Shown here: positions 4,100 to 35,682 of the stretch, in pieces
How the letters are laid out: each line of letters opens with the position of its first letter
Position numbering within the stretch: position 1 is the first letter of the stretch
Assembly: GCA_944389445.1 (NCBI GenBank)
Contig: CALXMJ010000326.1
Span: forward strand, 1 to 35,682
Reading direction: 5' to 3'
Length of the DNA: 35,682 nt
DNA from: an uncultured Victivallales bacterium
GTDB lineage: Bacteria > Verrucomicrobiota > Lentisphaeria > Victivallales > UBA1829
Program-made: the position numbers and the translations under genes
The notes under the pieces: model-generated
Seen by the model: the letters and a program-made list of their open reading frames with translations, nothing else
Database searches by the model: none
What the model was told of the DNA's origin: nothing

Positions 4100-4163
4100 T
4101 TTTTCTTTTCTTCTCCTCATTTTTCTTTTTTCCTTTTTGAACCGGTTCTTGTTCTTTGTTTTA

Positions 4164-5691: not shown

Positions 5692-5698
5692 GCCTCAT

Positions 5699-7485: not shown

Positions 7486-7552
7486 ACCGCTCTTTTCGTT
7501 GCTTTTTTTTTCACAAAAATATCAATGATGTATCTTTTTTTTTCGACAGGTC

Positions 7553-7581
7553 TTGTTTCCCGGAGGAATGCGCGGTATAAT
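7553..7581 (+). promoter_or_regulatory. Candidate promoter for the isomerase gene (TTGTTT-N17-TATAAT)
   Basis: TTGTTT at 7553-7558 and TATAAT at 7576-7581. TAAGGAG Shine-Dalgarno at 7599-7605, 8 nt before the ATG at 7614. Confidence 0.35.
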
Positions 7582-7613
7582 ACAGGCAGTCACTAAAATA
7601 AGGAGTTGTTCTT

Positions 7614-13012: not shown

Positions 13013-13027
13013 GTGAAAAAGACTCCT

Positions 13028-13060
13028 GGGGAAATTCCACTCTATTGCTGGAATCTCCCC
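13028..13060 (+). terminator. Hairpin 16 nt after the GH2 stop (12-bp stem with 1 mismatch, 9-nt loop, no U tract)
   Basis: GGGGAAATTCCA (13028-13039) pairs with TGGAATCTCCCC (13049-13060). It sits exactly where base composition drops from high to low GC. Confidence 0.35.
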
Positions 13061-13158
13061 ATCCGTCCCTGATGCCGTTGCGCGCTTTACTACAAGCTGC
13101 CAGAGGCGTGAAAGGATATTCCGCCGAACCGGAATTCTATATGGAAAATCTCTGAGCA

Positions 13159-14103: not shown

Positions 14104-14136
14104 CGCGTTCTCTCATCCTGGCGGAAAGACGCTCCT

Positions 14137-15198: not shown

Positions 15199-16241
15199 CT
15201 GGATATCCTCCATTCGAAATGGTTGAGCAGACTGGGAATATAATATTTTCCCAGATCATAAAGAACACAAAGAGCGCTTCTGATTCTTCCTGGGATGGAA
15301 TGGGCGATTTTCATATATTGCTGCAGAAATGTTTTGGAAATTTCTTCTTTTTCCCATGCATCAAAGAGAAGAGTCATTCCCTGTTCCTGCTGATCGTTCG
15401 GCAAACGGCTTAGTATTTCGAGAGTATAAAGACAGTTTTCCCGTTTTTTTGCTTCCAGCGCTTCATGATAAACCGGAGGCAGGGAAACTCTATGGAAAAA
15501 ACAGGAAAGTTCCCGGAAGGATTCTATGTTGTTTACAAATTGCCGGAATTGACTTAAAGTATATGTCTTTTTTCCGTAAGTTCCTGCTCCGTAATGATAT
15601 CGGTAAACTCGTTTACGGATGTACAGCATGGTGTTTACATAATACATCAGATGTGTCATGATTAAGAAATCATCATTGATGCAGTGGGGAATTTCTGATG
15701 GAAGATGTTGTTTGAGCAGAGAGGCATTCCATAAGTTCCCCCATAAATGAGGAATAAACTTATTTTCAAGAAAATAAGTATCAAAGATCTTGTCTTTATG
15801 CAGAATTTTTCCATGTGGTAAAGTATAACGTTCAAAAATAGCATGGATTCTTAAGGATGAGGTATCCGCTACTTGCGTACCGAAGTGAATCAGATCAAAG
15901 GGTCCGGAAGATGAATATGCAAATGCTTTTTGAAGAAAAGAAGGAAGCAGCTCATCATCTGCATCGCAGAAGGCAATATAAGTTCCGCAAGCAGCATTAA
16001 TTGCGGTTTTTCTTGCTTTTACCCTTCCGTAATTCTGGTCATGTTGAATGATTTTGAAGCGGGAATCCTTTGCTGCGTACTCTTCCATTATCGAAAGAGA
16101 AGCATCCGGAGAAGCATCGTTGACGAGAATGACTTCCATATCCTCAAAGTCCTGATTGAGAATGGAGTCGAGACAGCGCCGCAGATACTTTTCCGCGCCG
16201 TAGACTGGAATCAGGATGGAGACGAATGGTTTGTTGTTCAT
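15195..16241 (-). CDS. Glycosyltransferase family 2, paralog A
   Basis: VSILIPVYGAEKYLRRCLDSILNQDFEDMEVILVNDASPD...FCDADDEL. ATGA overlap with the upstream GT8 gene (16238-16241). Confidence 0.9.
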   Translation of the reverse strand: MNNKPFVSILIPVYGAEKYLRRCLDSILNQDFEDMEVILVNDASPDASLSIMEEYAAKDSRFKIIQHDQNYGRVKARKTAINAACGTYIAFCDADDELLPSFLQKAFAYSSSGPFDLIHFGTQVADTSSLRIHAIFERYTLPHGKILHKDKIFDTYFLENKFIPHLWGNLWNASLLKQHLPSEIPHCINDDFLIMTHLMYYVNTMLYIRKRVYRYHYGAGTYGKKTYTLSQFRQFVNNIESFRELSCFFHRVSLPPVYHEALEAKKRENCLYTLEILSRLPNDQQEQGMTLLFDAWEKEEISKTFLQQYMKIAHSIPGRIRSALCVLYDLGKYYIPSLLNHFEWRISR

Positions 16242-17287
16242 TTGCCCTTCCTTTGTCCAGTTAGCAGTTTTAAAATTTCAGGAAGATCGAATTTCAGAAA
16301 ATCATAAAAGTTCCGCAGAGGCTTTGTCATTTTCCAGGGAATGGAATTGACGACCATATCATAATTTTTCTGAAGGAAACGACATCTGTCTTCCAGAGCC
16401 TTCCTCTGAATTTTTTCTTTGAACGGAAGCTTATTTGCATAGAACCACCAAAGATCTGCCAGTTCTTTCTCCGGGCTGTTCCATGGTTTTCGATCGGATG
16501 CATAGTGAATTAGAGCCGGTGGATTTGTTCCAGTTTCATATACACGATATTTTTTTAACAGCCGAGGCGATATATAGTCCTTCCAATGCCAGCAGACATT
16601 CCATTCCGGCGGCAGAAATGTGACTTTTCCCTGACAAACAATATTGAGAACATCCTGATCCGGAGTCCGCAATTTTTTGTTTTTGCGCAGAACGCTTATG
16701 AACTTCGGGATCAGATTTGTGTTCCTGATTTGATTTAAGTTCATTACCATGTGTCCGGATGCAAAATAAGTTTTCCAAGGTGTTTTCATTTTCAGATTCG
16801 CATTCAAATACATTCTGGCAGAGTGCAGCAGACAGATCCATTCATGACCCGCTGCAAGATAGCAGTTTTCAATATTTATATCAAAAAGTCCTGCAATATC
16901 TTTTTGTATAATGAGATCGGAATCCAGATAGATGACTTTATCATAATCAGGCAGAATTTCTGCAAGAAACAGACGGTAGTAAATGGCCGGAGAAAAATGA
17001 AAACAAGTATACAGATTATTTTTGCCATATTTTTCTGTCAGAGAGGCGATGTTTAAGAATTGAATGGAAAAATTGGTGTTCCCTTCGATAACAGAGGATA
17101 GGAGACGTTTGCTGGCACTCGAAAGATTTTCTTCCAGCACAATGAGTTCATAGAAGTTTTCCTCGGAGGAATTTTCAACAATGGATTGGATTGTCACAGC
17201 TAAGTACAACGCGTATTGGTCATCCACGGAGAATACAACAGGAATCTTGTTTTTTAAATGTGTTTGACCGGTTTCAGGCTGATTCAT
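16238..17287 (-). CDS. Glycosyltransferase family 8, paralog 2
   Basis: IPVVFSVDDQYALYLAVTIQSI, YLDSDLII, HYASDRKPW. Alignable by eye along its whole length with 14137-15198. Confidence 0.9.
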   Translation of the reverse strand: MNQPETGQTHLKNKIPVVFSVDDQYALYLAVTIQSIVENSSEENFYELIVLEENLSSASKRLLSSVIEGNTNFSIQFLNIASLTEKYGKNNLYTCFHFSPAIYYRLFLAEILPDYDKVIYLDSDLIIQKDIAGLFDINIENCYLAAGHEWICLLHSARMYLNANLKMKTPWKTYFASGHMVMNLNQIRNTNLIPKFISVLRKNKKLRTPDQDVLNIVCQGKVTFLPPEWNVCWHWKDYISPRLLKKYRVYETGTNPPALIHYASDRKPWNSPEKELADLWWFYANKLPFKEKIQRKALEDRCRFLQKNYDMVVNSIPWKMTKPLRNFYDFLKFDLPEILKLLTGQRKGK

Positions 17288-17356
17288 GTTTGCTGTATCC
17301 CTTTACTCAAAATTTATTATACTATAGCGCCATTTATGAAAAATAACAGCATGAGC

Positions 17357-18100
17357 TTAAATCACGTGTAAGAATTTCAGAATCCGCCCGATCAAGTAAC
17401 GACAATAAAGGAGAAAATAAACTGGACGTGATATGAGTGCATGTGCAAATTGGACTCGTCTGGCATCCATCAGAGTTTTTCTCCAGTCAGCCGAACTGAT
17501 CCCGTCGCTTTCCATAAAATTGGATACGATGAAATCCATTGGCAGAAATCGGGCGCTCTGCAGATGAAGACGCAGTAGGAAATCATAGTCCGCAGCAATT
17601 TTGAATTGCGGTCGGAACATGCCGTATTTTCGGTAAGCATCCCTGTGAACAAAACAACCGGGATGAGCCATCGGCGTTTCCGGTAGAAAAAGATCGGAAT
17701 GACGGAGAAGTTTTTTTTCCATTCCCCGGCTGTCCAAAAATCGGACGATTCCATAATAGACATCAATATTACAGTGCTTTTCTGCTACAGTTTTTATGTT
17801 TTGCAGGGTTCCCGGTTCATAGAAATCATCGCTGTTGCAGATGCCGATGATTTCTCCTTTTGCCATACGGATTCCTTTGTTCATGGCATCATAAAGTCCA
17901 TTGTCATGTTCTGAAATCCATCGCATCCGTCCTTCGAAGCGCGGTTCATATTCCCGGATGATATCGAGAGTGGAATCGCCGGATGCTCCGTCAATGACAA
18001 GGTATTCATAATCCCGGCATGACTGTGAGAGGATTGATTCGAATGTCCTTCGAATTGTTTTTTCACTGTTTTTGCAGACGGTTATGATGGTGAATTTCAT
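17357..18100 (-). CDS. Glycosyltransferase family 2 (small WcaA-like type, 247 aa)
   Basis: MKFTIITVCKNSEKTIRRTFESILSQSCRDYEYLVIDGASGDST...ICNSDDFY. Trimmed to the ATG at 18100, which overlaps the upstream stop (ATGA at 18097-18100). The 45-aa extension in the track has no family resemblance. Confidence 0.88.
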   Translation of the reverse strand: MKFTIITVCKNSEKTIRRTFESILSQSCRDYEYLVIDGASGDSTLDIIREYEPRFEGRMRWISEHDNGLYDAMNKGIRMAKGEIIGICNSDDFYEPGTLQNIKTVAEKHCNIDVYYGIVRFLDSRGMEKKLLRHSDLFLPETPMAHPGCFVHRDAYRKYGMFRPQFKIAADYDFLLRLHLQSARFLPMDFIVSNFMESDGISSADWRKTLMDARRVQFAHALISRPVYFLLYCRYLIGRILKFLHVI

Positions 18101-19653
18101 TTTTTGTCCTTTTGCATTTGCATGATTTTCCGTTTCTGAACAAGCAGAAGCATTTTCTGTTTTTGCTGTTTGAGCCGAATGTTTTTTTCTGTAAAGAAAG
18201 AATACAGCTGCCGAGGAAAATAGGTAAGAAAGCAACCTAAAGAATAGGAGAAACTGTTAAAATTACTTAAGAAGATATGTCGATCGAAGTTTTGCTTGAA
18301 ACAGGTTGCGTTCCATAAGGAAAACTCCAGAAAGATTCTTCCGATTTTATTAGTTTTCCCGATATCGGGGAAAAACAGTTTCATATGGGAACCAAATGGT
18401 AAGAAGTAATATCCTGAATTCAGAGTGAAATAGACAGCTCCTTCTATTTTGGGAAAATCATTGACGTCCCCTGATGATTTCCAGATGCAGCTCCCTTTTT
18501 CATCATAAATAGCGAGTTCTCTAAATTGATAAATAAAATCCGAACTTTCAAAATCCAGATATAAAGATTCAAGGAAAGAATCGTTCGGAAGCTGGAAATT
18601 TATTTGATAAAAACGATTGTCCATTAAAATTAGACGTTCTAGTTTTTCCCATTTCCCCTCCGATTCAGATTTTTGGTAAAGTAATTTGATATTTCGGACG
18701 GCTGAATATATCACTTTTGAGATGATTTCCTGGTGAGCGGAATCTTTATCCGGTTCTGGGATTTCGACGATATTGGGCAGAAGAACTGTTTCAGGTTTTG
18801 CAAGTTCCCGCTGAACAGCAGCAAGAATTGCTTCAAAAGGAATTGCATCCGAACAGGAAAAATCCTGAGTACAAGCAACAGCATAGCATTCCTCATCGCA
18901 GCATTTTGTACAGGATTTGGAAGAGGTAACCCGTTCGAATTCAGGATAATGAGAATTAATATCTTCCGCAGATGCATGAATAATCACACCGGGACATTTC
19001 ACCGCACGGGCCACATGCATGATTCCTCCAATCGGTCCTATAAATAAACGCGAATGAAATAGTACTGCGGCGGTATCCCGGATCGCCAGCCTTCCGCGCA
19101 GATCCAGAACTCCTTCCAGAAGGGTGTCGTCAGAAGAACCTACTTGGATAATATGATAGTCGGTTTTCAGGAGATTTACTAATTTCTGGATTTGTTCTAT
19201 ATTCAGGCGTTTGTAGAATCCGGATCCCATGGTGATTACGATCTGTTTTTTATAGAAAGAACCAAAAGATTTTTCTTTAGCAGTTAAATAAATTTCCGGT
19301 TCCAATATCATTTTCCCAGTGAGACCTGCTTGAATGCATAATCTCAGGAGAAGATTTTCTCTGGCAAAATAGGAATATGGCTCGCCCTTTATTGTATATT
19401 TGACATGAGCAGAGGAAAGAGAGGTAATCGACAGACCCAGACGTTTTAGAAATATTTGTCTTCTGGGAGAAAAAAAATATGGTGAAATTCCGTTTATAGG
19501 GAAAATATAGGGATTATGTTTTAAGATATCCTGATTCGAATGGATGATAGAACATTTTTTTCCGCTTCGCTGAAAGTAATTCCTGGCAACAACAGTTGCC
19601 ATGACACAATCGCCCAATCCGTCATCCGTAATGAAAATCTGGGAGATTCCCAT
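18097..19653 (-). CDS. Glycosyltransferase family 9 (heptosyltransferase-like) fused to a Cys-rich linker and a C-terminal domain of about 190 aa with unknown function
   Basis: The N-terminus MGISQIFITDDGLGDCVMATVVA resembles the GT9 start (..LGD..). The GT9 C-lobe is LDLRGRLAIRDTAAVLFHSRLFIGPIGGIMHVARAVKCPGVII. A Cys-rich stretch SCTKCCDEECYAVACTQDFSCSD follows, then sequence I cannot assign. Start trimmed to the ATG at 19653. Confidence 0.75.
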   Translation of the reverse strand: MGISQIFITDDGLGDCVMATVVARNYFQRSGKKCSIIHSNQDILKHNPYIFPINGISPYFFSPRRQIFLKRLGLSITSLSSAHVKYTIKGEPYSYFARENLLLRLCIQAGLTGKMILEPEIYLTAKEKSFGSFYKKQIVITMGSGFYKRLNIEQIQKLVNLLKTDYHIIQVGSSDDTLLEGVLDLRGRLAIRDTAAVLFHSRLFIGPIGGIMHVARAVKCPGVIIHASAEDINSHYPEFERVTSSKSCTKCCDEECYAVACTQDFSCSDAIPFEAILAAVQRELAKPETVLLPNIVEIPEPDKDSAHQEIISKVIYSAVRNIKLLYQKSESEGKWEKLERLILMDNRFYQINFQLPNDSFLESLYLDFESSDFIYQFRELAIYDEKGSCIWKSSGDVNDFPKIEGAVYFTLNSGYYFLPFGSHMKLFFPDIGKTNKIGRIFLEFSLWNATCFKQNFDRHIFLSNFNSFSYSLGCFLTYFPRQLYSFFTEKNIRLKQQKQKMLLLVQKRKIMQMQKDKK

Positions 19654-19877
19654 TATTTTCAGATAAAATAGTTTCAGATAAATGAAAATATGCACATTGA
19701 ATTTCCTTCGAGTGAATATGGTTAAAAGGTTTATTCTGCAGTCAGTTGCATATTTTGAATCATCCTGTTTTTCCATTATCTCTCATATGGGGAATCTGCA
19801 GAGTCCTGTTGAAAATGGAAATAGATCAGTTTTGTCCCGGAGGATTTTGCCGGAAAGTTGTAGATACGCGTGCATTG

Positions 19878-20930
19878 TCATTGAAAAGATTTCCTTTTTC
19901 TGCTGGGGAATATATTGTTACAGAGATCGTATAGCTTTCGCAAAGGGTATGTCGCTTTCCAGGGCAGGGATGTCGCAATGAGTTCGTATTTCTCTTCCAG
20001 ATTTGCAATGTAATGCGTTTGTATGGAGATATAATTTTCCTTCCCCCAGTTGTCCATCAGTATTTGATGCCCTTGGAGCAGAAGATCTGGAACAAGCCGT
20101 TTCAACGATTCAAATGTTTCCAACATGTATTCCGTTTTCAGAAAATCCAGACGTTTCCTGTATTGTTCCGGTAAATGAGCCTGCTGGAAAAATGAAGATA
20201 AAATATCAAAAATTTTAATAGCGGAGGCTTTTTGTCGAAATTGAAAGACGGATAGTTGTGGTATTCCGGATGGTCCATTCTCAAAACAGTAATAATATAC
20301 CTTGTCATGAACGTATAAAAGATTTTTTGCATAATACATGATGACAGTCATCCGCAGAAGATCTTCGCAGGAACAATTCGGAGTCTCAATAAAATTGCAT
20401 TGTTTCAGCAGCGAGGTCCGAAATACATTGCCGCAGAGATTCCAGCGTATTTTACCTTCCAGGAAATATGTTTGGAATAAACAGTCCTTATTAAAAACTG
20501 TTTTATGGGGAAATAGACGATGCTCATAATGATTTTTTATCATGGAGGGAATCTTTTTGCCAATAAGAGTTGTGGCAAAATGGACAATATCATATTCCGT
20601 ATCCGAGAGATATTCAGAAGCTTTCCTTAGATAATTTTGATCCAAGTAATCATCAGAATCACAAAAGACGCAGTATTTCCCTGTTGCCAGATCAATTCCC
20701 GTTTTTCTTGCCATAACCATCCCATAATTCTGTGGGTGACAGTAAATACGAATTCGAGAATCCTTGGCAAGATATTCTTCCATGATTTCCTGACTTTTAT
20801 CTGGGGATGCATCATTGACAAGAATGAGTTCAAAGTCTGTAAAGGTTTGATGAATCAGGGAATCCAGACAGCGACGAAGATAACGTTCTACATTATATAC
20901 CGGAACTAAAATAGAAAAAAATGGTTTCAT
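19878..20930 (-). CDS. Glycosyltransferase family 2, paralog B
   Basis: FSILVPVYNVERYLRRCLDSLIHQTFTDFELILVNDASPD...FCDSDDYL. Collinear similarity to 15195-16241. Confidence 0.9.
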   Translation of the reverse strand: MKPFFSILVPVYNVERYLRRCLDSLIHQTFTDFELILVNDASPDKSQEIMEEYLAKDSRIRIYCHPQNYGMVMARKTGIDLATGKYCVFCDSDDYLDQNYLRKASEYLSDTEYDIVHFATTLIGKKIPSMIKNHYEHRLFPHKTVFNKDCLFQTYFLEGKIRWNLCGNVFRTSLLKQCNFIETPNCSCEDLLRMTVIMYYAKNLLYVHDKVYYYCFENGPSGIPQLSVFQFRQKASAIKIFDILSSFFQQAHLPEQYRKRLDFLKTEYMLETFESLKRLVPDLLLQGHQILMDNWGKENYISIQTHYIANLEEKYELIATSLPWKATYPLRKLYDLCNNIFPSRKRKSFQ

Positions 20931-21090
20931 AATAGTCGTTGCAATTTCCAGAAAGTTCTTGTTTTCTTTTTGCTGCCTTTGAGATCAATGTGCATTTCCC
21001 TAATTATCTATTCGTAAAAAAGGGGAAGACAATGCCGTTTTCCTGCATCTGTAATTTATGACTAAAAAAATCAAAGACCCCTTTTATATT

Positions 21091-21119
21091 ATAATAGCAT
21101 AAAAATAAATAGAAAGCAA
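21091..21119 (-). promoter_or_regulatory. Candidate promoter for the minus-strand glycosyltransferase operon (TTGCTT-N17-TATTAT with TGn extension)
   Basis: On the minus strand, TTGCTT is the reverse complement of 21114-21119 and TATTAT is the reverse complement of 21091-21096. It lies in an AT-rich divergent intergenic region. Confidence 0.35.
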
Positions 21120-21171
21120 ATAGTTTATTTTTTGTAATCGGGGATCTTCGAGCCTTTTTTTACTTTTTTTC

Positions 21172-21200
21172 TTGACAGGTACTCTAAATAGAATTATTTT
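21172..21200 (+). promoter_or_regulatory. Candidate promoter for the radical SAM gene (TTGACA-N17-TATTTT)
   Basis: Perfect -35 at 21172-21177 and TATTTT at 21195-21200. The first ATG (21207) is only 6 nt after the -10. Either the mRNA is leaderless or the real start is the ATG at 21222, behind AAGGTGG (21211-21217). Confidence 0.4.
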
Positions 21201-21206
21201 AATTCT

Positions 21207-22223
21207 ATGGAAGGTGGTCGTATGGTTGTAAAAATGTCTTTCGCGTGTTTGCGGGAAATGTTCCGCTCCTTTCTGGATGTTTTCTGGCTTCGTTTTCTGC
21301 AGACATCTTTTCTGCATAAATTCATCGCATATTGTTTCAAGATTCTCTTGGCGCCCTTTATCTTTTTGAGATTTTTTTATTTGAGATTCCTCCTGTTGCG
21401 AATTCCATATTTGCCCCAGCTTTCACTGGATATAACGAGTCATTGCACTTTAAATTGCCGCTATTGTTGTGCGTTGCTTCCCTATGACAAAAATAGAAGG
21501 CATTCTTCCAAGGAAGAAATTCTTGAAGATATTCACTGTTTGCTTCAGGTAGTACAAAAGATCGGAAGTTTGCATATTCTGGGAGGAGAAGCCTTGCTTC
21601 ACCCGGATCTGCCTGAGATTATGGAAAATTTAATCAAGATTGCCCGGATTAATGAAATTCATCTGATCACCAATGGTTCACTGCTGCCTTCTGCAGAGTT
21701 ACTGAATGTCCTTAGAAATCCCAAGGTTTCGGTAGAAATCAGCGATTATATTAATGTCCAGAATCGTTGCAATGAGGTCTTCCAATGTTTTAAAAAGGAG
21801 TCGATTCATGTTTCGTTTCGAATCCTCAGTTGGCAAAATCTGCATTTCTCTCCATCAAAGAAGCGAACCGGGAAACAGTTGAAAGAGATTTTTGACAGAT
21901 GTTGCAGCAAGACATGTCTTAATTTGCGTGACGGGATATTTACCCGCTGTCAAAGCGCCTGCCATCTTATGGAAATTGGAATGGTTCCCTATAAGCCTGG
22001 TGATTTTGTCAATATACGCCATTCAGGTTCTCGAGAAGAAAGAAAAAGAATACTTCGCGAGTTGGAAAACCTCCTTTTTAATAAAAAATTCCTTCAGGCT
22101 TGTGATTATTGTGATGGTTATTATAAAGATGGCGATTTAATTCCTGTTGCGGAGCAGCTCCCTTTCGGAACTTTTCTTTCTTTGCAGGATGAGAATTCAG
22201 AAGGTGTCCGAGATAACGGCTAG
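21207..22223 (+). CDS. Radical SAM enzyme with hydrophobic N-terminal segment and Cys-rich C-terminal region
   Basis: CX3CX2C motif in LDITSHCTLNCRYCC. GGEALL SAM-binding motif. Seven Cys in the last ~110 residues (RCCSKTC...RCQSAC...ACDYCDG). The start is ambiguous between 21207, 21222 and 21234. Confidence 0.85.
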   Translation: MEGGRMVVKMSFACLREMFRSFLDVFWLRFLQTSFLHKFIAYCFKILLAPFIFLRFFYLRFLLLRIPYLPQLSLDITSHCTLNCRYCCALLPYDKNRRHSSKEEILEDIHCLLQVVQKIGSLHILGGEALLHPDLPEIMENLIKIARINEIHLITNGSLLPSAELLNVLRNPKVSVEISDYINVQNRCNEVFQCFKKESIHVSFRILSWQNLHFSPSKKRTGKQLKEIFDRCCSKTCLNLRDGIFTRCQSACHLMEIGMVPYKPGDFVNIRHSGSREERKRILRELENLLFNKKFLQACDYCDGYYKDGDLIPVAEQLPFGTFLSLQDENSEGVRDNG

Positions 22224-22999
22224 TTTTTTTGATAGAGATCCAATACGTCGTTTATTTTTCCAGCGGCCGCCAGTTTTCCTGCTTTTAACAAGATTCCAGT
22301 CTTGCATAAAGATTGTATTGCTGACGTATTATGGCTGATAAACAGGATGGTGCGTCCTTCACTGCGGGAGATGTCGTTCATTTTTGCAATACATTTTTTC
22401 TGGAACTCGGAATCCCCGACCGCGAGGACCTCATCGATCAGAAGAATCTCCGGGTCCAGATGCGCCGCTACCGCGAACGCCAGCCGGACATACATTCCGC
22501 TCGAATAACGTTTGACCGGCGTATCCAGAAATTTTTCCACGCCGGAAAACGCCACAATCTCATCAAATTTCGCTTTGACCTCCGCGCGTTTCATTCCCAG
22601 AATCGCACCGTTCAGATAAATGTTTTCCCGTCCGTTCAGCTCCGGATGAAATCCCGTTCCGACCTCCAGAAGACTTGCCGCACGGCCGCGCATGATGATA
22701 CGTCCCCTGGTCGGTTCCGTGATCCGGCTGAGAAGCTTCAGAAGGGTCGATTTGCCTGCCCCGTTCCGTCCGATGATGCCGACCCTGTCACCCGGTTCGA
22801 TTTCGAAGGAGACATCCTCCAGCGCATGGAACTCCTCAAGATCAACATGGGCCCGGTTCAGGCTGAATGGATGCCGGAACCGTTCAATCAGTCCCTTTCC
22901 GAACATGGTTGCCGATTCGACAAAGGTATCCACACCCCGTTTCTGGTGACTGATTTCGTAATATTTGCTCAGATGTTCTACTGTGATAATCGGCTTCAT
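22220..22999 (-). CDS. wzt: Polysaccharide-export ABC transporter ATP-binding protein (Wzt/TagH/KpsT-like, nucleotide-binding domain only)
   Basis: Walker A GRNGAGKST, signature-like YSSGMYVRLAFA, Walker B LLIDEVLAVGD. At 259 aa there is no C-terminal carbohydrate-binding extension. High GC. Confidence 0.92.
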   Translation of the reverse strand: MKPIITVEHLSKYYEISHQKRGVDTFVESATMFGKGLIERFRHPFSLNRAHVDLEEFHALEDVSFEIEPGDRVGIIGRNGAGKSTLLKLLSRITEPTRGRIIMRGRAASLLEVGTGFHPELNGRENIYLNGAILGMKRAEVKAKFDEIVAFSGVEKFLDTPVKRYSSGMYVRLAFAVAAHLDPEILLIDEVLAVGDSEFQKKCIAKMNDISRSEGRTILFISHNTSAIQSLCKTGILLKAGKLAAAGKINDVLDLYQKN

Positions 23000-23886
23000 T
23001 GCTTTTTCTCCCGCAGAAACGGCAGATAGCCAAGGATAAAAGCCCTGAAATGTTCCGGAATCAGAATATGAATAATCTGACGGAACTTTGTCGATTTGAA
23101 TTCTTTGTATCTGAAATCGAACATGAAATTCACGATCTGCGGCATTTGTGTCCCATAATGCTGTAACAGAAATGGTTTCAGCCGTTGTTTTTGTTTTTCA
23201 TTAGGATAATAACTCCAGTACAAAGTCAGCATCCAGAAAATTCCAAGCAAATCATCATCAGACAAATCCGCAAGATGAACCATTCCAATATTCGGAATGG
23301 TATTCCCGGAGAGTGTCTGAGGAATAAATTTTTCTCCTTTCAAGGCAGAAAAAAGCGTTGCGCATGTGTAGCCGAATTTTAGGGAGAAATTCAGATGATA
23401 GGCAATATCATGCAGCACAACAACAGCATTTTTTTTCAGATACGGATAAATCATCAGAAAATCCAGCAGTTCGCCCGGATTTGTATGAGCTGTATCGAGA
23501 AGACAGAGATCGATATCAGAACCAATGGTATCCATAAAATCCAGTGCGATACTTCCAGTAGAAAGGGTCCATTTGCTCATAAGTTCCGGGAATGACTTTT
23601 TGACAAGAAAGCCGGTTTTTAAAGTAGCATTTTTATAATAGGACTGACTCAAATCAATCGAATAAAGATGGGCACCGGGAATATCCTTGATTGCATTCAG
23701 AATCAGGGCACTGGATGCTCCGGCGGCGACTCCGATCTCTAAAATTTTCCTAGGCCTGTGTTTTCGTATGATCCCGTTTAAAAATGCCGATTCCACTGGC
23801 AGCATTTCTGAATATATTTGAAAATCGGTATGGCGGATCACTTCCAATACGGATGTTTCATAGTTTTCATAGATAAATTTCCTCAT
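22996..23886 (-). CDS. Class I SAM-dependent methyltransferase (Methyltransf_24/O-methyltransferase-like)
   Basis: Motif I ILEIGVAAGASSALIL, an acidic loop YSIDLS, and LLDTAHTNPGELLDF...VVVLHD. Its stop overlaps the wzt start (ATGA at 22996-22999). Low GC, unlike both neighbours. Confidence 0.85.
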   Translation of the reverse strand: MRKFIYENYETSVLEVIRHTDFQIYSEMLPVESAFLNGIIRKHRPRKILEIGVAAGASSALILNAIKDIPGAHLYSIDLSQSYYKNATLKTGFLVKKSFPELMSKWTLSTGSIALDFMDTIGSDIDLCLLDTAHTNPGELLDFLMIYPYLKKNAVVVLHDIAYHLNFSLKFGYTCATLFSALKGEKFIPQTLSGNTIPNIGMVHLADLSDDDLLGIFWMLTLYWSYYPNEKQKQRLKPFLLQHYGTQMPQIVNFMFDFRYKEFKSTKFRQIIHILIPEHFRAFILGYLPFLREKKQ

Positions 23887-23902
23887 AAAAATCCCTTTTG
23901 GC

Positions 23903-24748
23903 TTAGATCACATCCGCGAATTCGCGCTCCATGAAACGAAAGATAAAATATCCACCCAGCAGGAGCAGAAGGGAGATCGCCGCGGACATTACCAGCGATG
24001 GCAGGTAGAGCTGCGTTCCGAACAGTGACCACCGGACTCCGTCAATAATTCCAGCCAGCGGATTCAGACTGAACAGCAGTCGCCAGTTTCCAGGCACAAC
24101 CGAGCTGATGAATCCCACCGGTGAAACATACATCCCCAGCTGAAGTGCAAAAGGAACCGCAAAACGGAAATCCCGGAATTTGACGTTTAACGCTGAAATG
24201 ATGTAAGTGGCTCCGAGGGAAGTAATTGCTGTTAAAAAAATGAAAAAAGGAAGAAATACAATCCGCCAGTTCGGGAAAACTCGATAGTAGAAGAACAGCG
24301 GGATGAATACAATGGCCGAAATCAGAAAATCCGTCAGGCTTACCGTCATACTGGTGGACGGAATGATCAGCCGGGGAAAATAGACCTTTGAAATCAGATT
24401 GGAATTGTTCAGCAGGGATTCGCTCCCGATGGAGACCGTGTTGTTGAAGAACTGCCAGACCAGCATTGCGGCATAGACGGTCAACGGATACGGCACATTG
24501 TCCGACGGCAGATTCGCGATCTTGCTGAAGACAATCGTAAATGCGATCATTCCCAGCAGCGGACGGATGATGCTCCATGTGATTCCGATTACCGTCTGCT
24601 TGTACCGGACAATGATATCCCGCCACGCCAGAATCAGAAACAGCTCCCGGTACAGCCACAGATCATGCAGGTAGCGGGAATGTGTTCGTCCAGCCTCAAT
24701 TATCAGAATATGTTCTTCCGATTCTCCATTCATACCGTTTGTCCGCAC
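23903..24748 (-). CDS. wzm: ABC-2 type polysaccharide-export permease
   Basis: LWLYRELFLILAWRDIIVRYKQTVIGITWSIIRPLL is the typical Wzm/TagG N-terminal motif, followed by about 6 hydrophobic helices. GTG at 24748 has GAGAGGAAG 7 nt upstream. ATG at 24733 is an alternative. Confidence 0.9.
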   Translation of the reverse strand: MRTNGMNGESEEHILIIEAGRTHSRYLHDLWLYRELFLILAWRDIIVRYKQTVIGITWSIIRPLLGMIAFTIVFSKIANLPSDNVPYPLTVYAAMLVWQFFNNTVSIGSESLLNNSNLISKVYFPRLIIPSTSMTVSLTDFLISAIVFIPLFFYYRVFPNWRIVFLPFFIFLTAITSLGATYIISALNVKFRDFRFAVPFALQLGMYVSPVGFISSVVPGNWRLLFSLNPLAGIIDGVRWSLFGTQLYLPSLVMSAAISLLLLLGGYFIFRFMEREFADVI

Positions 24749-30200: not shown

Positions 30201-30281
30201 GTCCCGGACCGGAGACCTTCCGGAAGAAGGGACGTCCTCCGGGCAGAAAACGGAAATTTTCCGGAAATTCATTTTCAGGGA

Positions 30282-30309
30282 TTGACTTTTTTTGAAAATT
30301 TGTTATAAT
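30282..30309 (+). promoter_or_regulatory. Near-consensus extended -10 promoter (TTGACT-N16-TGtTATAAT)
   Basis: TTGACT at 30282-30287, TG at 30301-30302, TATAAT at 30304-30309. About 43 nt upstream of the LacI ATG. Confidence 0.5.
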
Positions 30310-30313: not shown

Positions 30314-30325
30314 TTAACGCGTTTA
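30314..30325. promoter_or_regulatory. Candidate LacI-family operator (TTAACGCGTTTA; perfect 8-bp palindrome AACGCGTT with central CG)
   Basis: It lies 5 nt downstream of the -10, around the expected transcription start. LacI/GalR operators are CG-centred palindromes. Confidence 0.4.
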
Positions 30326-30351: not shown

Positions 30352-31386
30352 ATGGCACAGTCTTATATTTCCATGCGTTCTTTCGCTAAGATGGCCGGTG
30401 TTTCCGTGGCGACCGTCTCGCATGTTTATTCCAATCCGGACAGTGTTTCAAAAGCAACAGCTAAACGTGTTTTGGAACTTGCGGAAACGGTTGGTTTTTC
30501 TCCGAATGCCGTTGCCAAAGCCGCCTTCGGGGAATCGACCCAGAGCATCGGCATCCTTCTTCCGAGTCTTTCCGACAGTTATTTCGGGGGAATTGCCCGG
30601 GCGATTCAGAAACGCTTGATTCAGGCCGATTATCTGCCGATTTTCATTGATTCCGTCGATTCGTCGGAAGATTCTCTCAGCCGTCTTCTGAAGCACAAGG
30701 TGGATGCGCTTGTCATCGGCTGTTCCGATGAAAATCTCAACATTCCCAAAATCTGCCGGAATCAGATGACACGGCTGCCGATCGTTGCCATTGAACAGAT
30801 GCGTCCGGGTGTTTGCTCGGACTCTGTGCTCAACGATGATTACGATGGAGGTTTTCAGGCGGGAAAACATCTGATTTCTCTGGGGCACCGGCGATTCGGA
30901 GCCTGCACCTATGGCGAGGAACGGAGCAACTGCATTCCGCGAATCATCGGTTTCCGCGATGCCATCCGCCACTCCGGAGGGACTCTGGAAGATCGTTTCA
31001 TTACACACCTGACGATTCACGGAGCGGAGAACGACGGAGACAGGAAGATGCGGAAGGAGCTGGAGAAAATTCTTTCCGCATCGGATGCCCCCACCGCTAT
31101 TTTTGCCACAACGGATTACCTTGCTCTCCATGTTTATGATGCTGCAAAAAAAATCGGACTGCGGATTCCGGAGGATGTCAGTGTCGTCGGGTTCGGCGAT
31201 CTTCAGTTCTCGCCATACGTCAATCCTCCGTTGACGACCATTCGTCAGAATCCGGCGCTCATCGGTACAAAAACGGCGGAGCTGCTGCTGAAACGGCTGA
31301 AACATCCGGATCGAAATATGGAAAACATCTGCGTACCGGTGGCGCTGCTGGTTCGCGGTTCAACAAAGGAGAGAACGATAAAATGA
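30352..31386 (+). CDS. LacI family transcriptional regulator
   Basis: HTH MRSFAKMAGVSVATVSHVYSNPDSVSKATAKRVLELAETVGFSPNAVAKA plus a sugar-binding core. ATG at 30352 (the track start 30334 is TTG). Confidence 0.9.
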   Translation: MAQSYISMRSFAKMAGVSVATVSHVYSNPDSVSKATAKRVLELAETVGFSPNAVAKAAFGESTQSIGILLPSLSDSYFGGIARAIQKRLIQADYLPIFIDSVDSSEDSLSRLLKHKVDALVIGCSDENLNIPKICRNQMTRLPIVAIEQMRPGVCSDSVLNDDYDGGFQAGKHLISLGHRRFGACTYGEERSNCIPRIIGFRDAIRHSGGTLEDRFITHLTIHGAENDGDRKMRKELEKILSASDAPTAIFATTDYLALHVYDAAKKIGLRIPEDVSVVGFGDLQFSPYVNPPLTTIRQNPALIGTKTAELLLKRLKHPDRNMENICVPVALLVRGSTKERTIK

Positions 31387-32096
31387 AGGTAAAATTTTTC
31401 ACACTTATAGAGCTTCTGATCGTTGTTGCAATCATAGCAGTTCTTTGCGCATTGCTGCTGCCGGCATTGAACGGCGCAAGAAGCAAGGCCAATATCATCT
31501 CCTGTCTGAACAATGCGAAGGAGTGCGGGAGGCAGATGCTGATGTATGCGAACGATTCTCATGCCTGGATTCCGGTCGGAGTCAATACGGGAGATCCACA
31601 CTCCAACTGGCACGAGACTTTGCTGGCATTCGGTTATCATGGGAAAAAGAAATCCAATTGTCAGAAAAACGCGATTTGCCGCTGTCCGGGGGATCCCGAT
31701 TTCGGCATCGCCTACTGGACCATCGACGGAGCAAAGCTGACGGAAAAAGGAGGAAAGAAAACCAGTCTGGCCCCAGGTTCGGGGTTCAACTCGGACGGAA
31801 TCAATATCGCCTCTTTTCCCTCTCCTTCCACGACGGTTATGTTCACAGAGGGGGCGTGGATGAATGGAGAAGGAAAACCGGTATACCGTTATTTTCCCAG
31901 TGGTGTCTGGAGCACATATTATGTCTATCTCCGCCATCAGCGGAAGGCGACATTTTATTGGATGGATGGTCACGCAACCAACGGCGTGGTAGATGCCTAT
32001 GCAAGGGCAACCCAGCCGTGGAACGGTCTCTGGAATAGCAATGGTTTTATTGATCCGGCCGGAATCCTGTACCCGTTCAGTGCGTTTCGAAAATAA
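31383..32096 (+). CDS. Prepilin-type N-terminal cleavage/methylation domain protein with H-X9-DG motif (DUF1559-like)
   Basis: MKVKFFTLIELLIVVAIIAVLCALLLPALNGAR, and near the C-terminus RHQRKATFYWMDGH (H-X9-DG). The ATG overlaps the LacI stop (ATGA at 31383-31386). AAAGGAGAG Shine-Dalgarno lies inside the LacI 3' end. Confidence 0.88.
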   Translation: MKVKFFTLIELLIVVAIIAVLCALLLPALNGARSKANIISCLNNAKECGRQMLMYANDSHAWIPVGVNTGDPHSNWHETLLAFGYHGKKKSNCQKNAICRCPGDPDFGIAYWTIDGAKLTEKGGKKTSLAPGSGFNSDGINIASFPSPSTTVMFTEGAWMNGEGKPVYRYFPSGVWSTYYVYLRHQRKATFYWMDGHATNGVVDAYARATQPWNGLWNSNGFIDPAGILYPFSAFRK

Positions 32097-32124
32097 ACAC
32101 TGTTTTTCAAGAAGGGAGTTTTTC

Positions 32125-35100
32125 ATGAATCTTTCGTTTTCGTTCGTTTTGAGTGCGGGACTTGCGGCGGCGGTTCCTGTTGTTTCTTCTGCGTTTGTAC
32201 TGGAACGCAGAGCGGCGGATTTCAATCGTTTTGAAGGGCAGAGCGGATATGCGGAACTGGTCGGAAAGGCCGGAAATCTCAGTGGAAAAATCAAAGCGGG
32301 TGACAAGACTCGTCTGCTCGGGAAATTCGAATATGACTTCATGATTCCGCAGTCCGGCTGGTATGTTTTCACAATCCCGGCGGGAATCGGCCAGCTGGAG
32401 AGCTGGATCGACGGCAGACACTATTCCGTCGGAGAAACCGGAACGCGAATCGGAAGTTTTTATCTTGAGAAAGGCAAACATACGCTCACATTGCAGAAAC
32501 GGAACTGGTTCCATCCGTTTGGAAAGATCGACAAAATTATCATTTCCGATGCCGCCGCCCGGCCGGAGGAGAGAATCAACGTTTCAGGAGAACGTTTCGT
32601 AAACGAGGGTATCCTCCGGAAAGGCGGACACTACACGCTCAACATCTCCGCGGGAATGCCTGCGGATTCCACGCTGGAGGCTCTGGTCATCGACCGGAAA
32701 CAGCGGAAAGAGACAGCCCGCGTTTCCATAAAACTGCCGAAAACGGACCGGGGCGCGTTCTCCGGCAAACTCCGGATTCCGGCAAAGGAGGAAGGTTTGT
32801 TTGACATTCGCCTTCTTCTGAACGGAAAGCCTCTCCCGAAAGGAACGCTTCCCGTCTTTTCCATGGCGGTCATTGATGCGACTCCCCGCCGTATGGAACC
32901 GGAGAACCTGAAAAAGGCTCTGCTCTTTGAAATCGACTGCGTCAAACAGAACCCTGATTATTTCGGCGGAGGAAGTACCGGAGTCGTCAAAAAGGGATTC
33001 GGGGCCTACCGGGAGTCGGGCGATGTAAGCTGGCTTTCGCATATGAATTCCCATGAACCTTCCTGGTTTGCCTATCGGATTGAGGTCCCGGAAGCGCAGA
33101 AACCGTATCTGGTGGAAATTGACTATCCCGACGACGCGTTCCGGACGTTTGCCATTTCCCTGCGCAATCAGGGCGACACCAGCTATCCTGCCGCCGCAGG
33201 AGTCGAGACCGGACACGAATATCCGCTTTCCAACCGCATGCTGACCCATACGATTCTTTCCTGGTTCAAAGAGAAAAATTCGCGACTCATTGTCGCAAAC
33301 GCCTGCGACGGACAGCGCGGCGCCATTTCAAAGATCCGCGTTTACCGGATTGAAAATGCGGTTCTTCCTCCCTTGAAAAAAGCGGTCCCGGCGGAACGCG
33401 GATTCAGCAACTGGTACGAGGAGGGCAGCGGTTTCATGGGACTGTACGGATGCGACAGCCGCCGGAAAAGCCTTGACGATATGATTGTCGGCGCGGACCG
33501 CTGGGCGCAGACGATCGCTTTTATCGGCGGCACTACACTCTATCCGACTCTGATGGTCTATCAGTTCGGTCTCTCCCCGAGCCATTACAATGTGTTCGCC
33601 ACCGGAGCCACCCGCGATCTGGCGGAAGTGATTCTGCTCTCCGCGGAGAAATACGGAATGAATGTCCTCTTCGATTTTCACCCTGAAGCCCGCGACCTTC
33701 AGCTATTTGAGGATCAGGAGAACCGTCTCCGGAACCGGGAGGGGTTTGTAAGCACTTTTGCTCCGATGCACGGTCCTCTTCATCCGCGGAATCAGGCATG
33801 GCTCTGCGGAATGATTTCGGAATTCGTCAACCGCTACAAGAGTTCTCCCGCTCTGAAAGGGATCTCCCTGCGGCACATGACCTGGTTCAATCATGCGCTG
33901 GTCAACTTCAACGATCTTTCCTGGGGATATGATGATTACACCGTCAAACTTTTTGAACGTGAAACAGGCATGAAGATTCCAGACTGCGCAGACAAAGATC
34001 CGGCCAGATTTGCAAAACGCTACCGCTTCCTCGCGGAACAGAACCGTGAAACATGGATTGCGTGGAGATGCCGGAAAATCGCGGAACTTTATGCAAAACT
34101 GGCAAAGATCGTCCGGGATGCCCGTCCCGATCTTGTGATCCTTTCAAGCGTCTTCAACCGGGAAGCGGGTGTTGATCCGGAACTTCTCCGCAAGATCAGG
34201 AATGTCGTTGTGACGGACGGCTGCACCTACGGACGGCGCGGCCGCGGAGAGAACAATCGCGCAAACTTTCTGAAAAAAATGGGTTCGCTGGATCCGAATG
34301 TCTCCGCATTCACCTCCGGCGCCGCTTATTTTGAGGCCACGGAAAAAGTCATTCCTCCGGACCAGCTGGGCTATCCGAAGGGGACCCGGGCAACATGGAT
34401 GAGCGCAGTCATCAATCCTCCGGGCAGACTTGCCCTTGAGCGTTTTGCCGTGGCGCTTGCGAAAACCGATGCGAAACTGCTCGGCGACGGTGGAAATGCC
34501 TATACAGTCGGACAACCGGAACTTCGTCCGTTCCTGAAACAGTTCCGCTCCATTCCGAAGAAAAATTTCACGCTTCGGGATGACGCTTCGGAACCCGTTG
34601 CCGTTCGAACTTCCGGCAATGATTTTTATGCTGTCAATCTGATGCCGTTCCCTGTGAAAACCGTTCTCCGTTTTTCCGGAAACGGAAATGTGACCGGTCT
34701 TGCCGACGGCAAAAAGTATCCTTTGAAAGATCATTCACTGGAACTGAACTTGAACGCGTTCGAGCTGCTTGCGTTCCGGGCGGATCAGCCGATCAAAAGC
34801 GTCACCTCGGAAATTCCGACCGGAGAGTTCCGGAAATTCAAAGCGCAAACAGAGGCAATCCGTGACGTCCTGCCGAATGTGGATAAAAAATACCGGGAAA
34901 AAGTCGGAGCTCTGCTTGCCGGACTGGAAAATGATCTGAACGCCCGGAAATTCTGGACCTTCCGAAAAGAGCTGGAACTGGCGGATCCTTTGCTGAAATC
35001 GGCAGGGATTCTTCCCCCCTATTATTACAATGACGGCTGGCCGATCACTCCGCAGAATGCTATTCCGGCGGAAAAATTGAAGCAATATGCGACCGGCGGA

Positions 35101-35682
35101 ACCGAACTCATGAAAAGTGCCGATTTCGCCCCCGACTGGAACGGTGAACAGATCATTTTTTCCGAACCGGAAAAAACGCTGCGTTTCAAACTGCATCTGC
35201 CGGCGACAGGAGAGTATCGTTTGCAGGCGGGATTCGTCTCGGGCGGGAAATTCGGCAGTGCAGAAGTGAAAAGCGGAGGAAAAGTCATAGGAGTTCTTTC
35301 CTCCTCCGGCAAGGAAAATTCCGCTCGGAACGTGCTTCTTACTACGGCGATTCCGTTCCGGGCGGGAGAGAATATGCTGGAACTGGTTCCGGAAAAAGGG
35401 AAATCCGTCGCGGTCAGTTATCTCATGCTGACGCCTGTTTACACAGTGATTCCTCCGATGCGCTGGAAAGTCAGTGAAGTTTTCCCGAAGCAATCCATGG
35501 AAACGGTTCTTGATCCGGAACGCAATCGGGATTTCCGCAAGTGGATGCCCTTGAAAGGATTTAATGCCTTTACGGACCTTTCCTGCGGACATCCGGTGAA
35601 GGATGGAATCATCCGCTACGCGGTCACCTGCATCCATTCGCCGGACGATCGTACGGTCCGTCTTTCCTATGGAATCGACTAT
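32125..35682 (+). CDS. Very large secreted multidomain protein (at least 1186 aa, 3' end beyond the window) with CBM-like beta-sandwich segments and a putative glycoside-hydrolase-like core
   Basis: Not in the ORF track because it has no stop in the window. ATG at 32125 with AAGGGAG 6 nt upstream. I translated all 1186 codons by hand and found no in-frame stop. Signal peptide MNLSFSFVLSAGLAAAVPVVSSA. All listed minus-strand ORFs from 32584 to 35637 are codon-aligned antisense shadows of this frame. Confidence 0.85.
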   Translation, partial: MNLSFSFVLSAGLAAAVPVVSSAFVLERRAADFNRFEGQSGYAELVGKAGNLSGKIKAGDKTRLLGKFEYDFMIPQSGWYVFTIPAGIGQLESWIDGRHYSVGETGTRIGSFYLEKGKHTLTLQKRNWFHPFGKIDKIIISDAAARPEERINVSGERFVNEGILRKGGHYTLNISAGMPADSTLEALVIDRKQRKETARVSIKLPKTDRGAFSGKLRIPAKEEGLFDIRLLLNGKPLPKGTLPVFSMAVIDATPRRMEPENLKKALLFEIDCVKQNPDYFGGGSTGVVKKGFGAYRESGDVSWLSHMNSHEPSWFAYRIEVPEAQKPYLVEIDYPDDAFRTFAISLRNQGDTSYPAAAGVETGHEYPLSNRMLTHTILSWFKEKNSRLIVANACDGQRGAISKIRVYRIENAVLPPLKKAVPAERGFSNWYEEGSGFMGLYGCDSRRKSLDDMIVGADRWAQTIAFIGGTTLYPTLMVYQFGLSPSHYNVFATGATRDLAEVILLSAEKYGMNVLFDFHPEARDLQLFEDQENRLRNREGFVSTFAPMHGPLHPRNQAWLCGMISEFVNRYKSSPALKGISLRHMTWFNHALVNFNDLSWGYDDYTVKLFERETGMKIPDCADKDPARFAKRYRFLAEQNRETWIAWRCRKIAELYAKLAKIVRDARPDLVILSSVFNREAGVDPELLRKIRNVVVTDGCTYGRRGRGENNRANFLKKMGSLDPNVSAFTSGAAYFEATEKVIPPDQLGYPKGTRATWMSAVINPPGRLALERFAVALAKTDAKLLGDGGNAYTVGQPELRPFLKQFRSIPKKNFTLRDDASEPVAVRTSGNDFYAVNLMPFPVKTVLRFSGNGNVTGLADGKKYPLKDHSLELNLNAFELLAFRADQPIKSVTSEIPTGEFRKFKAQTEAIRDVLPNVDKKYREKVGALLAGLENDLNARKFWTFRKELELADPLLKSAGILPPYYYNDGWPITPQNAIPAEKLKQYATGGTELMKSADFAPDWNGEQIIFSEPEKTLRFKLHLPATGEYRLQAGFVSGGKFGSAEVKSGGKVIGVLSSSGKENSARNVLLTTAIPFRAGENMLELVPEKGKSVAVSYLMLTPVYTVIPPMRWKVSEVFPKQSMETVLDPERNRDFRKWMPLKGFNAFTDLSCGHPVKDGIIRYAVTCIHSPDDRTVRLSYGIDY

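Follow-up and report, generated by a model that had tools for sequence, protein, structure and literature searches.

The polysaccharide utilization loci (PULs) of Bacteroidota combine a dedicated regulator, a module-specific envelope component encoded right after it and exported glycan enzymes, with many paralogous modules per genome. These features are shared by a predicted six-gene operon of an uncultured Victivallales bacterium, whose 5' part occupies positions 30,352 to 35,682 of the 35,682-nt stretch of contig CALXMJ010000326.1 analysed here (the window). Its first three genes encode a LacI-family repressor, a pilin-like protein and a giant exported protein with a predicted glycoside hydrolase (GH) fold, and the order regulator, pilin-like protein, glycan enzymes is an enriched and recurrent layout in Lentisphaerota. 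The operon differs from the PULs in having no TonB-dependent transporter or SusD-like lipoprotein, the pilin-like protein standing in that place. The regulators are cytoplasmic LacI, GntR or AraC proteins, whereas PULs use hybrid two-component or extracytoplasmic function (ECF)/anti-sigma systems, and here the regulator is the first gene of the operon, with predicted co-transcription. The original prediction, made from the nucleotide sequence, called the locus PUL-like, a label that does not fit in the strict sense because SusC/SusD are missing.

LacI-controlled clusters of carbohydrate-active enzymes (CAZymes) in Gram-positive and other bacteria also combine a LacI-family repressor with exported hydrolases and esterases, and their operator overlaps the promoter, as the candidate operator does here. 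They usually include an ABC or phosphotransferase (PTS) transporter and a solute-binding protein, whereas the present operon lacks these and has a pilin-like gene next to the repressor gene, on its 3' side. Both such operons and the DUF1559/H-X9-DG family, to which the pilin-like protein belongs by alignment, are already known. In Planctomycetota, Verrucomicrobiota and Lentisphaerota it is one of the largest paralogous families without an assigned function. To our knowledge these phyla lack SusC/D, and their route of polysaccharide uptake is an open question. In a full-text literature search no paper connected DUF1559 proteins with CAZyme operons, and there was no account of the Lentisphaerota combination, of co-inheritance of pilin head and enzyme, or of a phylum-wide loss of glycine before the cleavage site; a 2025 Planctomycetota review does not mention the family.

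Pilin-type proteins or fibres have been implicated in polysaccharide binding elsewhere. Dextran binds pili-like fibres of Planctomycetes (PMC5394234), and a Pil-family cellulose-binding protein, CbpC/PilA1, occurs in R. albus (as cited in PMC4300822). These are not known to be products of regulator-CAZyme operons, and their comparison with the window protein covers the pilin helix.

Recurrence of the layout in Lentisphaerota

The recurrence of the layout was assessed in 80 genome loci picked by similarity to the pilin-like protein, 30 of them from Lentisphaerota. Genes were called with a home-made, self-trained codon model, and most reference calls of the window were recovered in this way; longest-ORF (open reading frame) calling had failed owing to very long antisense shadow ORFs, and scoring by amino-acid composition was still poor. 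In Lentisphaerota, regulators of the LacI/GntR-PBP (periplasmic-binding-protein type) or AraC kind lie directly upstream of 17 to 23 of 34 pilin-like genes, compared with 7 to 10 of 117 control genes from these loci (Fisher p 3e-8 to 4e-7), a five- to ten-fold enrichment. The Pfam counts upstream of the 34 genes are Peripla_BP_3 (LacI/GntR-PBP) 11, AraC 5, GntR-FCD 1 and GntR helix-turn-helix (HTH) at most 7. PBP-type regulators alone give 11/34 versus 5/117 (p 3e-5) by a jackhmmer classification that recovers only this type, while the aggregate Pfam counts cover the full range. The pilin regular expression skips variants such as FSLIELL (locus L007), and these gaps make the control conservative. 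The variant itself is a 279-aa pilin-like protein encoded at 16997-24087 of L007, together with a following 1710-aa ORF; it adjoins a divergent GntR-type regulator.

The coupling of regulator and pilin-like gene also recurs, an overlap of -4 (start/stop) being repeated in many modules. The downstream neighbours of the Lentisphaerota pilin-like genes are mostly glycan-active; on the same strand they include DUF4838, carbohydrate-binding module (CBM) family 9, Laminin_G_3, sulfatase, GH78, polysaccharide lyase, heparinase, GH123 and GH2 proteins. In Verrucomicrobiota and Planctomycetota, regulators are upstream in only 6/51. The adjacency, whose frequency across PVC (Planctomycetes-Verrucomicrobia-Chlamydiae) genomes had been suggested as a check, is strongly enriched only in Lentisphaerota.

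Operon organization

The features of the operon given here are all on the plus strand. The repressor gene (30352..31386), gene 1 of the operon, runs from an ATG at 30352 to a TGA at 31386 and encodes 344 aa. The pilin-like gene (31383..32096, 237 aa) begins within its end, the lacI stop and the pilin-like start sharing ATGA at 31383-31386. A 28-nt spacer with a Shine-Dalgarno-like AAGGGAG leads to the gene for the exported multidomain GH-like protein (32125..35682), which has its ATG at 32125 and stays open for 1186 stop-free codons up to base 35682, the last of the window. The window end cuts this gene, so that its 5' 84% is present; reading the contig beyond the window gives a complete protein of 1413 aa (P0001). 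Four other assemblies carry intact orthologues of 1409-1413 aa (74-86% identity). An apparent split of the gene in a further assembly (L001) was discarded, the break being a scaffold gap of N and no stop. The closest genomes are uncultured Lentisphaeria/Victivallales metagenome-assembled genomes.

A terminator scan found no site above chance between the three genes, and Rfam and tRNA scans found no RNA element in the lacI-pilin-giant region. Because of the ATGA overlap, the 28-nt spacer with its Shine-Dalgarno-like sequence and the lack of a credible terminator, lacI, the pilin-like gene and the giant gene plausibly form one transcription unit. Every coordinate and sequence that the original prediction gave for these three genes agrees with this description. 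It had also pointed out that the largest gene was missing from the ORF list, which is correct and has no biological cause; the list skips ORFs that run off the sequence end. Extension of the contig, proposed there as a check, recovered the full ORF, and no in-frame stop, which would have told against the prediction, occurs in it or in the independent assemblies. The proposed co-regulated unit holds up as a plausible single transcription unit with a recurrent layout, but the operon is longer than the three genes and runs past the window.

Beyond the window follow two AXE1/CE7-like acetyl-esterase genes (PF05448, 57.2 and 37.7 bits against a gathering threshold (GA) of 21) and a gene for a 310-aa exported protein of no identified family. 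The esterases carry CBM_4_9-like tails, the first with a weak CBM_4_9 match. All non-regulatory products of the operon have predicted signal peptides. Among the six genes, gene content shows no transporter gene, and Pfam content shows no SusC-like TonB-dependent transporter and no SusD. A further LacI/pilin-like/AXE1 module follows the 310-aa gene.

The cassette is conserved in the loci L005, L007, L008 and L010, and the order giant enzyme, esterase(s), ~310-aa protein persists down to 53% enzyme identity in L008, where the conserved enzyme cassette is combined with a GntR regulator and not with LacI. L005 contains three modules within 24 kb, and L010 also has three.

Promoter, candidate operator and repressor

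The repressor gene is preceded by a sigma-70-type promoter (30282..30309) with TTGACT, a 16-nt spacer and the extended -10 element TGtTATAAT, together 11/12 consensus matches. Four bases 3' of the -10 hexamer is a candidate LacI operator, TTAACGCGTTTA (TWAAC-NN-GTTTA; 30314..30325). The -35 and -10 hexamers are invariant in the orthologous loci L005, L007 and L010, and the core T[AT]AAC-NN-GTTTA is kept in the same loci, while sequence farther upstream has diverged. The near-consensus promoter and CG-centred palindrome that had been noticed before lacI are therefore both present and conserved. The operator pattern TWAACNNGTTWA has two matches in the window against 0.05 expected. The second match, TAAACTCGTTTA at 15604-15615, lies within a glycosyltransferase gene on the opposite strand and is probably due to chance.

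Another element, CGGAAATTTTCCGGAAA with a TTTCCGGAAA palindrome (30251..30267), precedes the -35 hexamer by about 15 nt. Its CCGGAAA is invariant in four orthologous loci that have different flanks and upstream genes. The element was also scored as a weak minus-strand hairpin in the terminator scan, and could act as a second regulator site or as an UP-like element.

The repressor has a LacI-type HTH (PF00356, 47.4 bits, GA 27) and a periplasmic-binding-protein-like effector domain (PF13377, 121.4 bits; PF00532, 94 bits) in Pfam. None of the NCBIfam equivalogs reaches its cut-off with this protein, the best being RbsR with 220 bits against 382. The next module on the source contig, 9 kb downstream (L004 18860-18900), has TGcTATAAT followed by a different palindrome, TGTAAACAGTTACA, and encodes a LacI protein, a 249-aa pilin-like protein with Asp at position -1 and an AXE1-like protein. 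Each module may thus be autorepressed by its own first gene.

The pilin-like protein

The N-terminus of the pilin-like protein, MKVKF|FTLIELLIVVAIIAVL, aligns with residue 1 of mature pilins in the Protein Data Bank (PDB; 6xxd PilA, E 1.6e-6). The leader MKVKF (nt 31383-31397) is followed by the alpha-1 helix (aa 6-58), and with 18.0 bits the protein passes the cut-off of 16.3 for TIGR02532, the prepilin N-terminal cleavage/methylation domain. The type IV pilin or pseudopilin N-terminus that had been read from the sequence is thereby confirmed. The Pfam N_methyl model reaches 17.7 bits with this protein, under its GA of 21.2. Near the C-terminus, R184-H185-x9-D195-G196-H197 (nt 31932-31973) contains the motif HQRKATFYWMDG, that is, H185-x9-D195-G196.

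The curated models of the family miss this protein, with no match to PF07596 (SBP_bac_10) or TIGR04294 even at E<=10, and its membership is therefore shown by alignment and by hhalign; TIGR04294 does match a paralogue in L005 (26.5 bits). The protein has 2655 database relatives. Its closest non-orthologous relatives by phmmer, from Victivallales/Lentisphaerae, have ~30% identity over 80-90% of the length and are mostly annotated as PF07596 or 'H-X9-DG protein'. In an alignment of 41 sequences that includes PF07596-annotated proteins, no variation occurs at F1, E5 and P22 of the mature protein (precursor positions F6, E10 and P27), at two Cys or at H185 and G196, and R184, D195 and H197 are conserved in >=90%. 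A profile of five orthologues matched 28 PF07596 members in hhalign with a probability of 100% (E 2e-48) over 181 columns, including RH..DGH. By these alignments the protein is a divergent member of the DUF1559/H-X9-DG family, as had been proposed, with the motif in register. Of the model searches suggested as a check, the prepilin domain passes, but the H-X9-DG and DUF1559 models do not detect the protein. With the family (PF07596; TIGR04294) it shares the FTLIELL helix, 'LLPAL..AR', the Cys pair and the C-terminal RH-x9-DGH; it differs in being missed by the curated hidden Markov models (HMMs), in a head without detectable similarity to others and in Phe for Gly at -1.

The protein also resembles the pseudopilins GspG-K and ComGC in its class III-type N-terminus with F1, E5 and P22. 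Its best NCBIfam similarities are to ComGC, PpdD-like and GspG, via the helix only, and the equivalogs of type II secretion system (T2SS) pseudopilins are far under cut-off (GspG 24.0 vs 88.85, GspH 20.4 vs 80, GspI/GspJ ~12). It differs from them in a larger (~180 aa), unrelated head, in the absence of Gly at -1 and in lying outside any gsp, pil or com cluster, its neighbours being the regulator and the enzymes. Position, length and Cys pattern of the gene are retained across orthologues of 70-97% identity. An AlphaFold2 model (mean predicted local distance difference test, pLDDT, 68.6) has a pilin-type helix of ~50 residues (8-58) packed on a beta-sheet, and Foldseek of this model against the PDB gave nothing significant (best E 0.57).

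A second pilin-like gene lies on the minus strand of the window (238-4120). It encodes 254 aa with FTLIELL (3356-4120) and is followed by a 1071-aa ORF (238-3453) without a Pfam match. No regulator adjoins it; upstream are tRNA-Lys (4358-4433) and a divergent guanylate kinase gene.

The predicted exported enzyme

The giant protein begins with a predicted Sec signal peptide (aa 1-23, ...VVSSA|F; 32125..32193), read from the sequence, which has no lipobox Cys. An AlphaFold2 model from a 42-sequence alignment has a pLDDT of 86.1 and a predicted TM-score (pTM) of 0.84. After the disordered signal peptide (residues 1-20, pLDDT <50) it consists of beta-sandwiches at aa 25-142, 151-250 and 264-409, a barrel at aa ~426-810, a beta-sandwich at aa 825-896, a helical bundle, a beta-sandwich at aa ~990-1104 and the start of a further beta domain. 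The first sandwich (aa 25-142, 32197..32550, from the modelled strands) is CBM6-like at best. The barrel (33400..34554) is a (beta/alpha)8 triose-phosphate-isomerase (TIM) barrel of catalytic type, judged from the alternation of strands and helices in the model. The C-terminal sandwich (35092..35436; strands 1009-1104, pLDDT ~90) is the second of two segments that had been called CBM-like. Both segments are real beta-sandwiches in a confident model, but their identity as CBMs is marginal. Pfam has no CBM domain in the protein, a profile search aligned aa 75-144 with the CBM6 of beta-agarase 2cdo at E 0.07, and the similarity of aa 1048-1119 to CBM6-like repeats was non-significant. Searched against the PDB as a single sequence, the protein gave zero matches, and its profile gave only the marginal CBM6 match.

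Within the barrel, aa 496-672 (nt 33610-34140) match the Pfam GHL10 family (PF02638, 32.6 bits vs a gathering threshold of 27.9). The match is partial (profile positions 68-225, 158/311), and the same precomputed match is found on many homologues. It is shared, above the gathering threshold and over part of the barrel, with GHL10 proteins such as C. difficile Cwp19 and D. radiodurans DogH. Foldseek ranks multidomain GH2 beta-glucuronidases and beta-galactosidases highest (E 1e-17, probability 1.0), followed by GH31-like and GH13 enzymes. The likeness to the GH2 enzymes lies in beta-sandwiches combined with a TIM barrel; the TM-scores are only 0.2-0.3, which come from a whole-model search and reflect multidomain alignment. 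E432, E433, D498, E508, E566, E737 and E772 are invariant acidic residues. The ~700 residues that had seemed impossible to place are now covered by a GHL10-type TIM barrel and accessory domains, and the proposed structure comparison points to an exported protein with a GH fold, not to an unrelated one. The model and the profile matches support an exported multidomain enzyme with a predicted glycoside-hydrolase fold. At E<=1e-10 its family comprises 1141 representative clusters, and no characterised member was found among the ~1100 representatives, making the enzyme a candidate for a new glycoside hydrolase family.

More distant homologues give a clue to the substrate. In seven proteobacterial loci (L030, L031, L032, L035, L039, L041, L047; 33-40% identity) the neighbours of the enzyme are Wzy (5), Wzx (3), GT2/GT1/GT4 glycosyltransferases, methyltransferases, an O-acyltransferase and GDSL esterases, and by this gene content the loci are exopolysaccharide/O-antigen-type clusters. 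Because of these clusters and the two acetyl-esterases of the Victivallales operon, the substrate is probably an acetylated polysaccharide, possibly a microbial exopolysaccharide.

Head domains and the enzyme family

The head domains, taken as the residues after the helix, were clustered for 123 pilin-like genes. Most are mutually unrelated by sequence. One clade (37-65% identity) occurs in L008, L012, L014, L015 (twice), L027 and L028, in six genomes. It is found only in loci retrieved via the giant enzyme (7/22, vs 0/95 in pilin-centred loci, p 3.4e-6), and its genes are always within a few kb of an enzyme homologue on the same strand. Because the clade is restricted to enzyme loci, its head type is co-inherited with the enzyme family, and this holds across wide divergence (enzyme identity 38-53%).

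Two stricter associations were rejected. Regulator and head are not a fixed pair, as LacI occurs with the enzyme-linked clade in L012, GntR with the same clade in L008 and LacI with another head in the window. Nor is the pilin-like gene obligately tied to the enzyme family, being missing at proteobacterial, Armatimonadota and Kiritimatiellia loci.

Proposed function and alternatives

The locus is probably a sugar-responsive operon of six genes with which an uncultured gut-type Victivallales bacterium processes glycans, and of which the window holds the 5' part. One promoter with a LacI-type operator 3' of the -10 would drive lacI, so that the repressor would be autoregulated, and the translationally coupled pilin-like gene would be transcribed together with those for the Sec-exported enzyme, the esterases and the 310-aa protein. 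The pilin-like protein would be the module's own envelope component, with a conserved assembly helix and a variable, module-specific head that would lend a shared type IV filament machine specificity for the glycan of the module. The filament would capture the glycan and hand it over to the Sec-exported enzymes, which would act in the periplasm. The pilin-like protein would then fill the position of SusC/SusD in Bacteroidota PULs, in analogy to DNA uptake by the competence pseudopilus. The competence pilus is a precedent for the import of a macromolecule via a type IV filament. A LacI-controlled operon in which the pilin head is the specificity component for glycan capture and import has, in our judgement, about an even chance of being correct. 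This reading is preferred because of the SusC/D-like position, the one gene per module, the absence of a transporter, the Sec-only enzymes and the published precedents, namely the dextran-binding fibres, the cellulose-binding protein of R. albus and the N_methyl+SBP_bac_10 proteins of Tuwongella, which localize to membranes and have signal-peptide genes as neighbours (PMC8567305).

Several observations weigh against this reading. The census counts are small and come from a home-made gene caller and 80 query-similar loci. The model of the pilin-like protein is only moderately confident and has no significant structural relative. The GHL10 match scores only marginally, and those GHL10 members that have been characterised catalyse unrelated reactions. 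Enzyme homologues of Proteobacteria, Armatimonadota and Kiritimatiellia have no pilin-like neighbour. The head clade of the window, with five orthologues, has no similarity to the enzyme-linked clade, and the orthologous cassette of L008 has a GntR regulator and a different head. The processing of the Lentisphaerota proteins, finally, is doubtful, because prepilin peptidases require Gly or Ala at -1. Position -1 of the window protein is Phe (MKVKF|F), not Gly, and only 3/37 Lentisphaerota pilin-like proteins have Gly there, the others having nearly any residue (R, K, S, T, I, P, D, N and others). In the Verrucomicrobiota/Planctomycetota loci of the L087-L166 sample, -1 is Gly or Ala in 52/52 genes (p 2e-21 between the phyla), and among 114 database relatives of the window protein only 13 have Gly or Ala.

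Gly (rarely Ala) at -1 is a key determinant for prepilin peptidase. F1, E5 and P22 of type IV pilins, for their part, count for processing, methylation and filament assembly and not for plain membrane anchoring; that they remain invariant argues that processing and assembly are still under selection. Either the peptidase specificity is relaxed in Lentisphaerota or the proteins are unprocessed, and the choice decides between a filament and a membrane anchor. The second case would correspond to an unprocessed bitopic inner-membrane protein with a periplasmic head, serving as an enzyme scaffold or chaperone or as a sensing partner of the adjacent regulator. The effectively random -1 residue is consistent with this, as are the linkage to the regulator, the tightest of the module with its ATGA overlaps in many modules, and the fractionation of N_methyl+SBP_bac_10 proteins with membranes in Tuwongella (PMC8567305). 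The invariance of F1, E5 and P22 across paralogues speaks against it; moreover, LacI, GntR and AraC regulators are cytoplasmic, bind small effectors and have no obvious use for a membrane partner, and regulator type and head type are not co-inherited. We regard a membrane-anchored role of this kind as quite unlikely.

A filament could also serve export. As a module-specific minor pseudopilin in a T2SS endopilus, the protein would pick Sec-exported enzymes for outer-membrane transport or surface retention, with no substrate capture. Such a secretion adaptor would explain equally well why head and enzyme are co-inherited, the head then recognizing the enzyme, and would suit an operon without a transporter whose non-regulatory products all have signal peptides. 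The best family-level similarity, to GspG/GspH/ComGC N-termini, points the same way, and in Planctomycetes the family genes are often flanked by signal-peptide genes, as in Tuwongella (PMC8567305). The T2SS pseudopilin equivalogs, however, remain far under cut-off (GspG 24 vs 88.85), Gly is missing at -1, Proteobacteria and Armatimonadota export the same enzyme family without such a partner, and the pairing of head and enzyme is loose, unrelated heads accompanying 53%-identical enzymes in the window clade and L008. These points make an adaptor unlikely.

The two remaining explanations concern the enzyme and the adjacency. The proteobacterial homologues among Wzy, Wzx and glycosyltransferases (7 loci), the glycosyltransferase/ABC-transporter cluster in the window (~13.1-24.7 kb) and the action of the GHL10 member Cwp19 on its own cell wall would fit an operon that trims or remodels the cell's own exopolysaccharide or surface glycan and not one for nutrient gain. 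But a LacI-type repressor with two esterases is a catabolic layout, the glycosyltransferase cluster is ~5.6 kb off with unrelated redox genes and a LysR gene between, and the orthologous operons of L005 and L007 have no such cluster nearby; a self-directed role is very unlikely. Pilin-like genes are so numerous, dozens to ~100 copies per Planctomycetes genome (PMC8567305), that their placement beside regulators and enzymes might be chance or hitch-hiking, and the enzyme family works elsewhere without a pilin-like partner. This is barely credible given the five- to ten-fold enrichment of upstream regulators over same-locus genes, the recurring start/stop overlaps, the position, length and Cys pattern kept across the 70-97% identical orthologues and the confinement of one head clade to loci with the enzyme family.

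Other features of the window

Surface-polysaccharide biosynthesis genes occupy 13159-24748 of the window. They encode GT2 and GT8 glycosyltransferases, a radical SAM enzyme, a methyltransferase, a 559-aa protein without a Pfam match and two ABC-transporter proteins, of which one ATPase has a faint Wzt_C match. At 5591-8327, an AraC-family gene (~5698-6531) and a second LacI-family gene (6529-7485) overlap end to start and are followed by a xylose-isomerase-like TIM-barrel gene (7614-8327), with no pilin-like gene. Long antisense shadow ORFs are present at 145-3453, 10679-13438, 30448-32372 and elsewhere, including one of 1055 aa opposite the 1071-aa ORF and one of 839 aa opposite a 777-aa GH2 gene.

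Implications for the DUF1559 family

The phylum-wide loss of Gly at -1 is relevant to the type IV filament field. The placement of the pilin-like genes between regulators and enzymes, a head clade that tracks an enzyme family and variable heads on an invariant helix make the function of the family testable in cultivable relatives such as Victivallis vadensis. A tentative generalization, and as a whole an unlikely one, would be that the DUF1559/H-X9-DG pilin-like proteins are interchangeable, substrate-specific subunits of a retractile type IV filament machine for glycan uptake in the PVC phyla, working in analogy to DNA uptake by competence pili, with one such protein per catabolic module encoded right behind its sugar-responsive regulator, and with Lentisphaerota having escaped the Gly(-1) rule. 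If true, they would be the functional counterpart of the SusC/SusD pairs.

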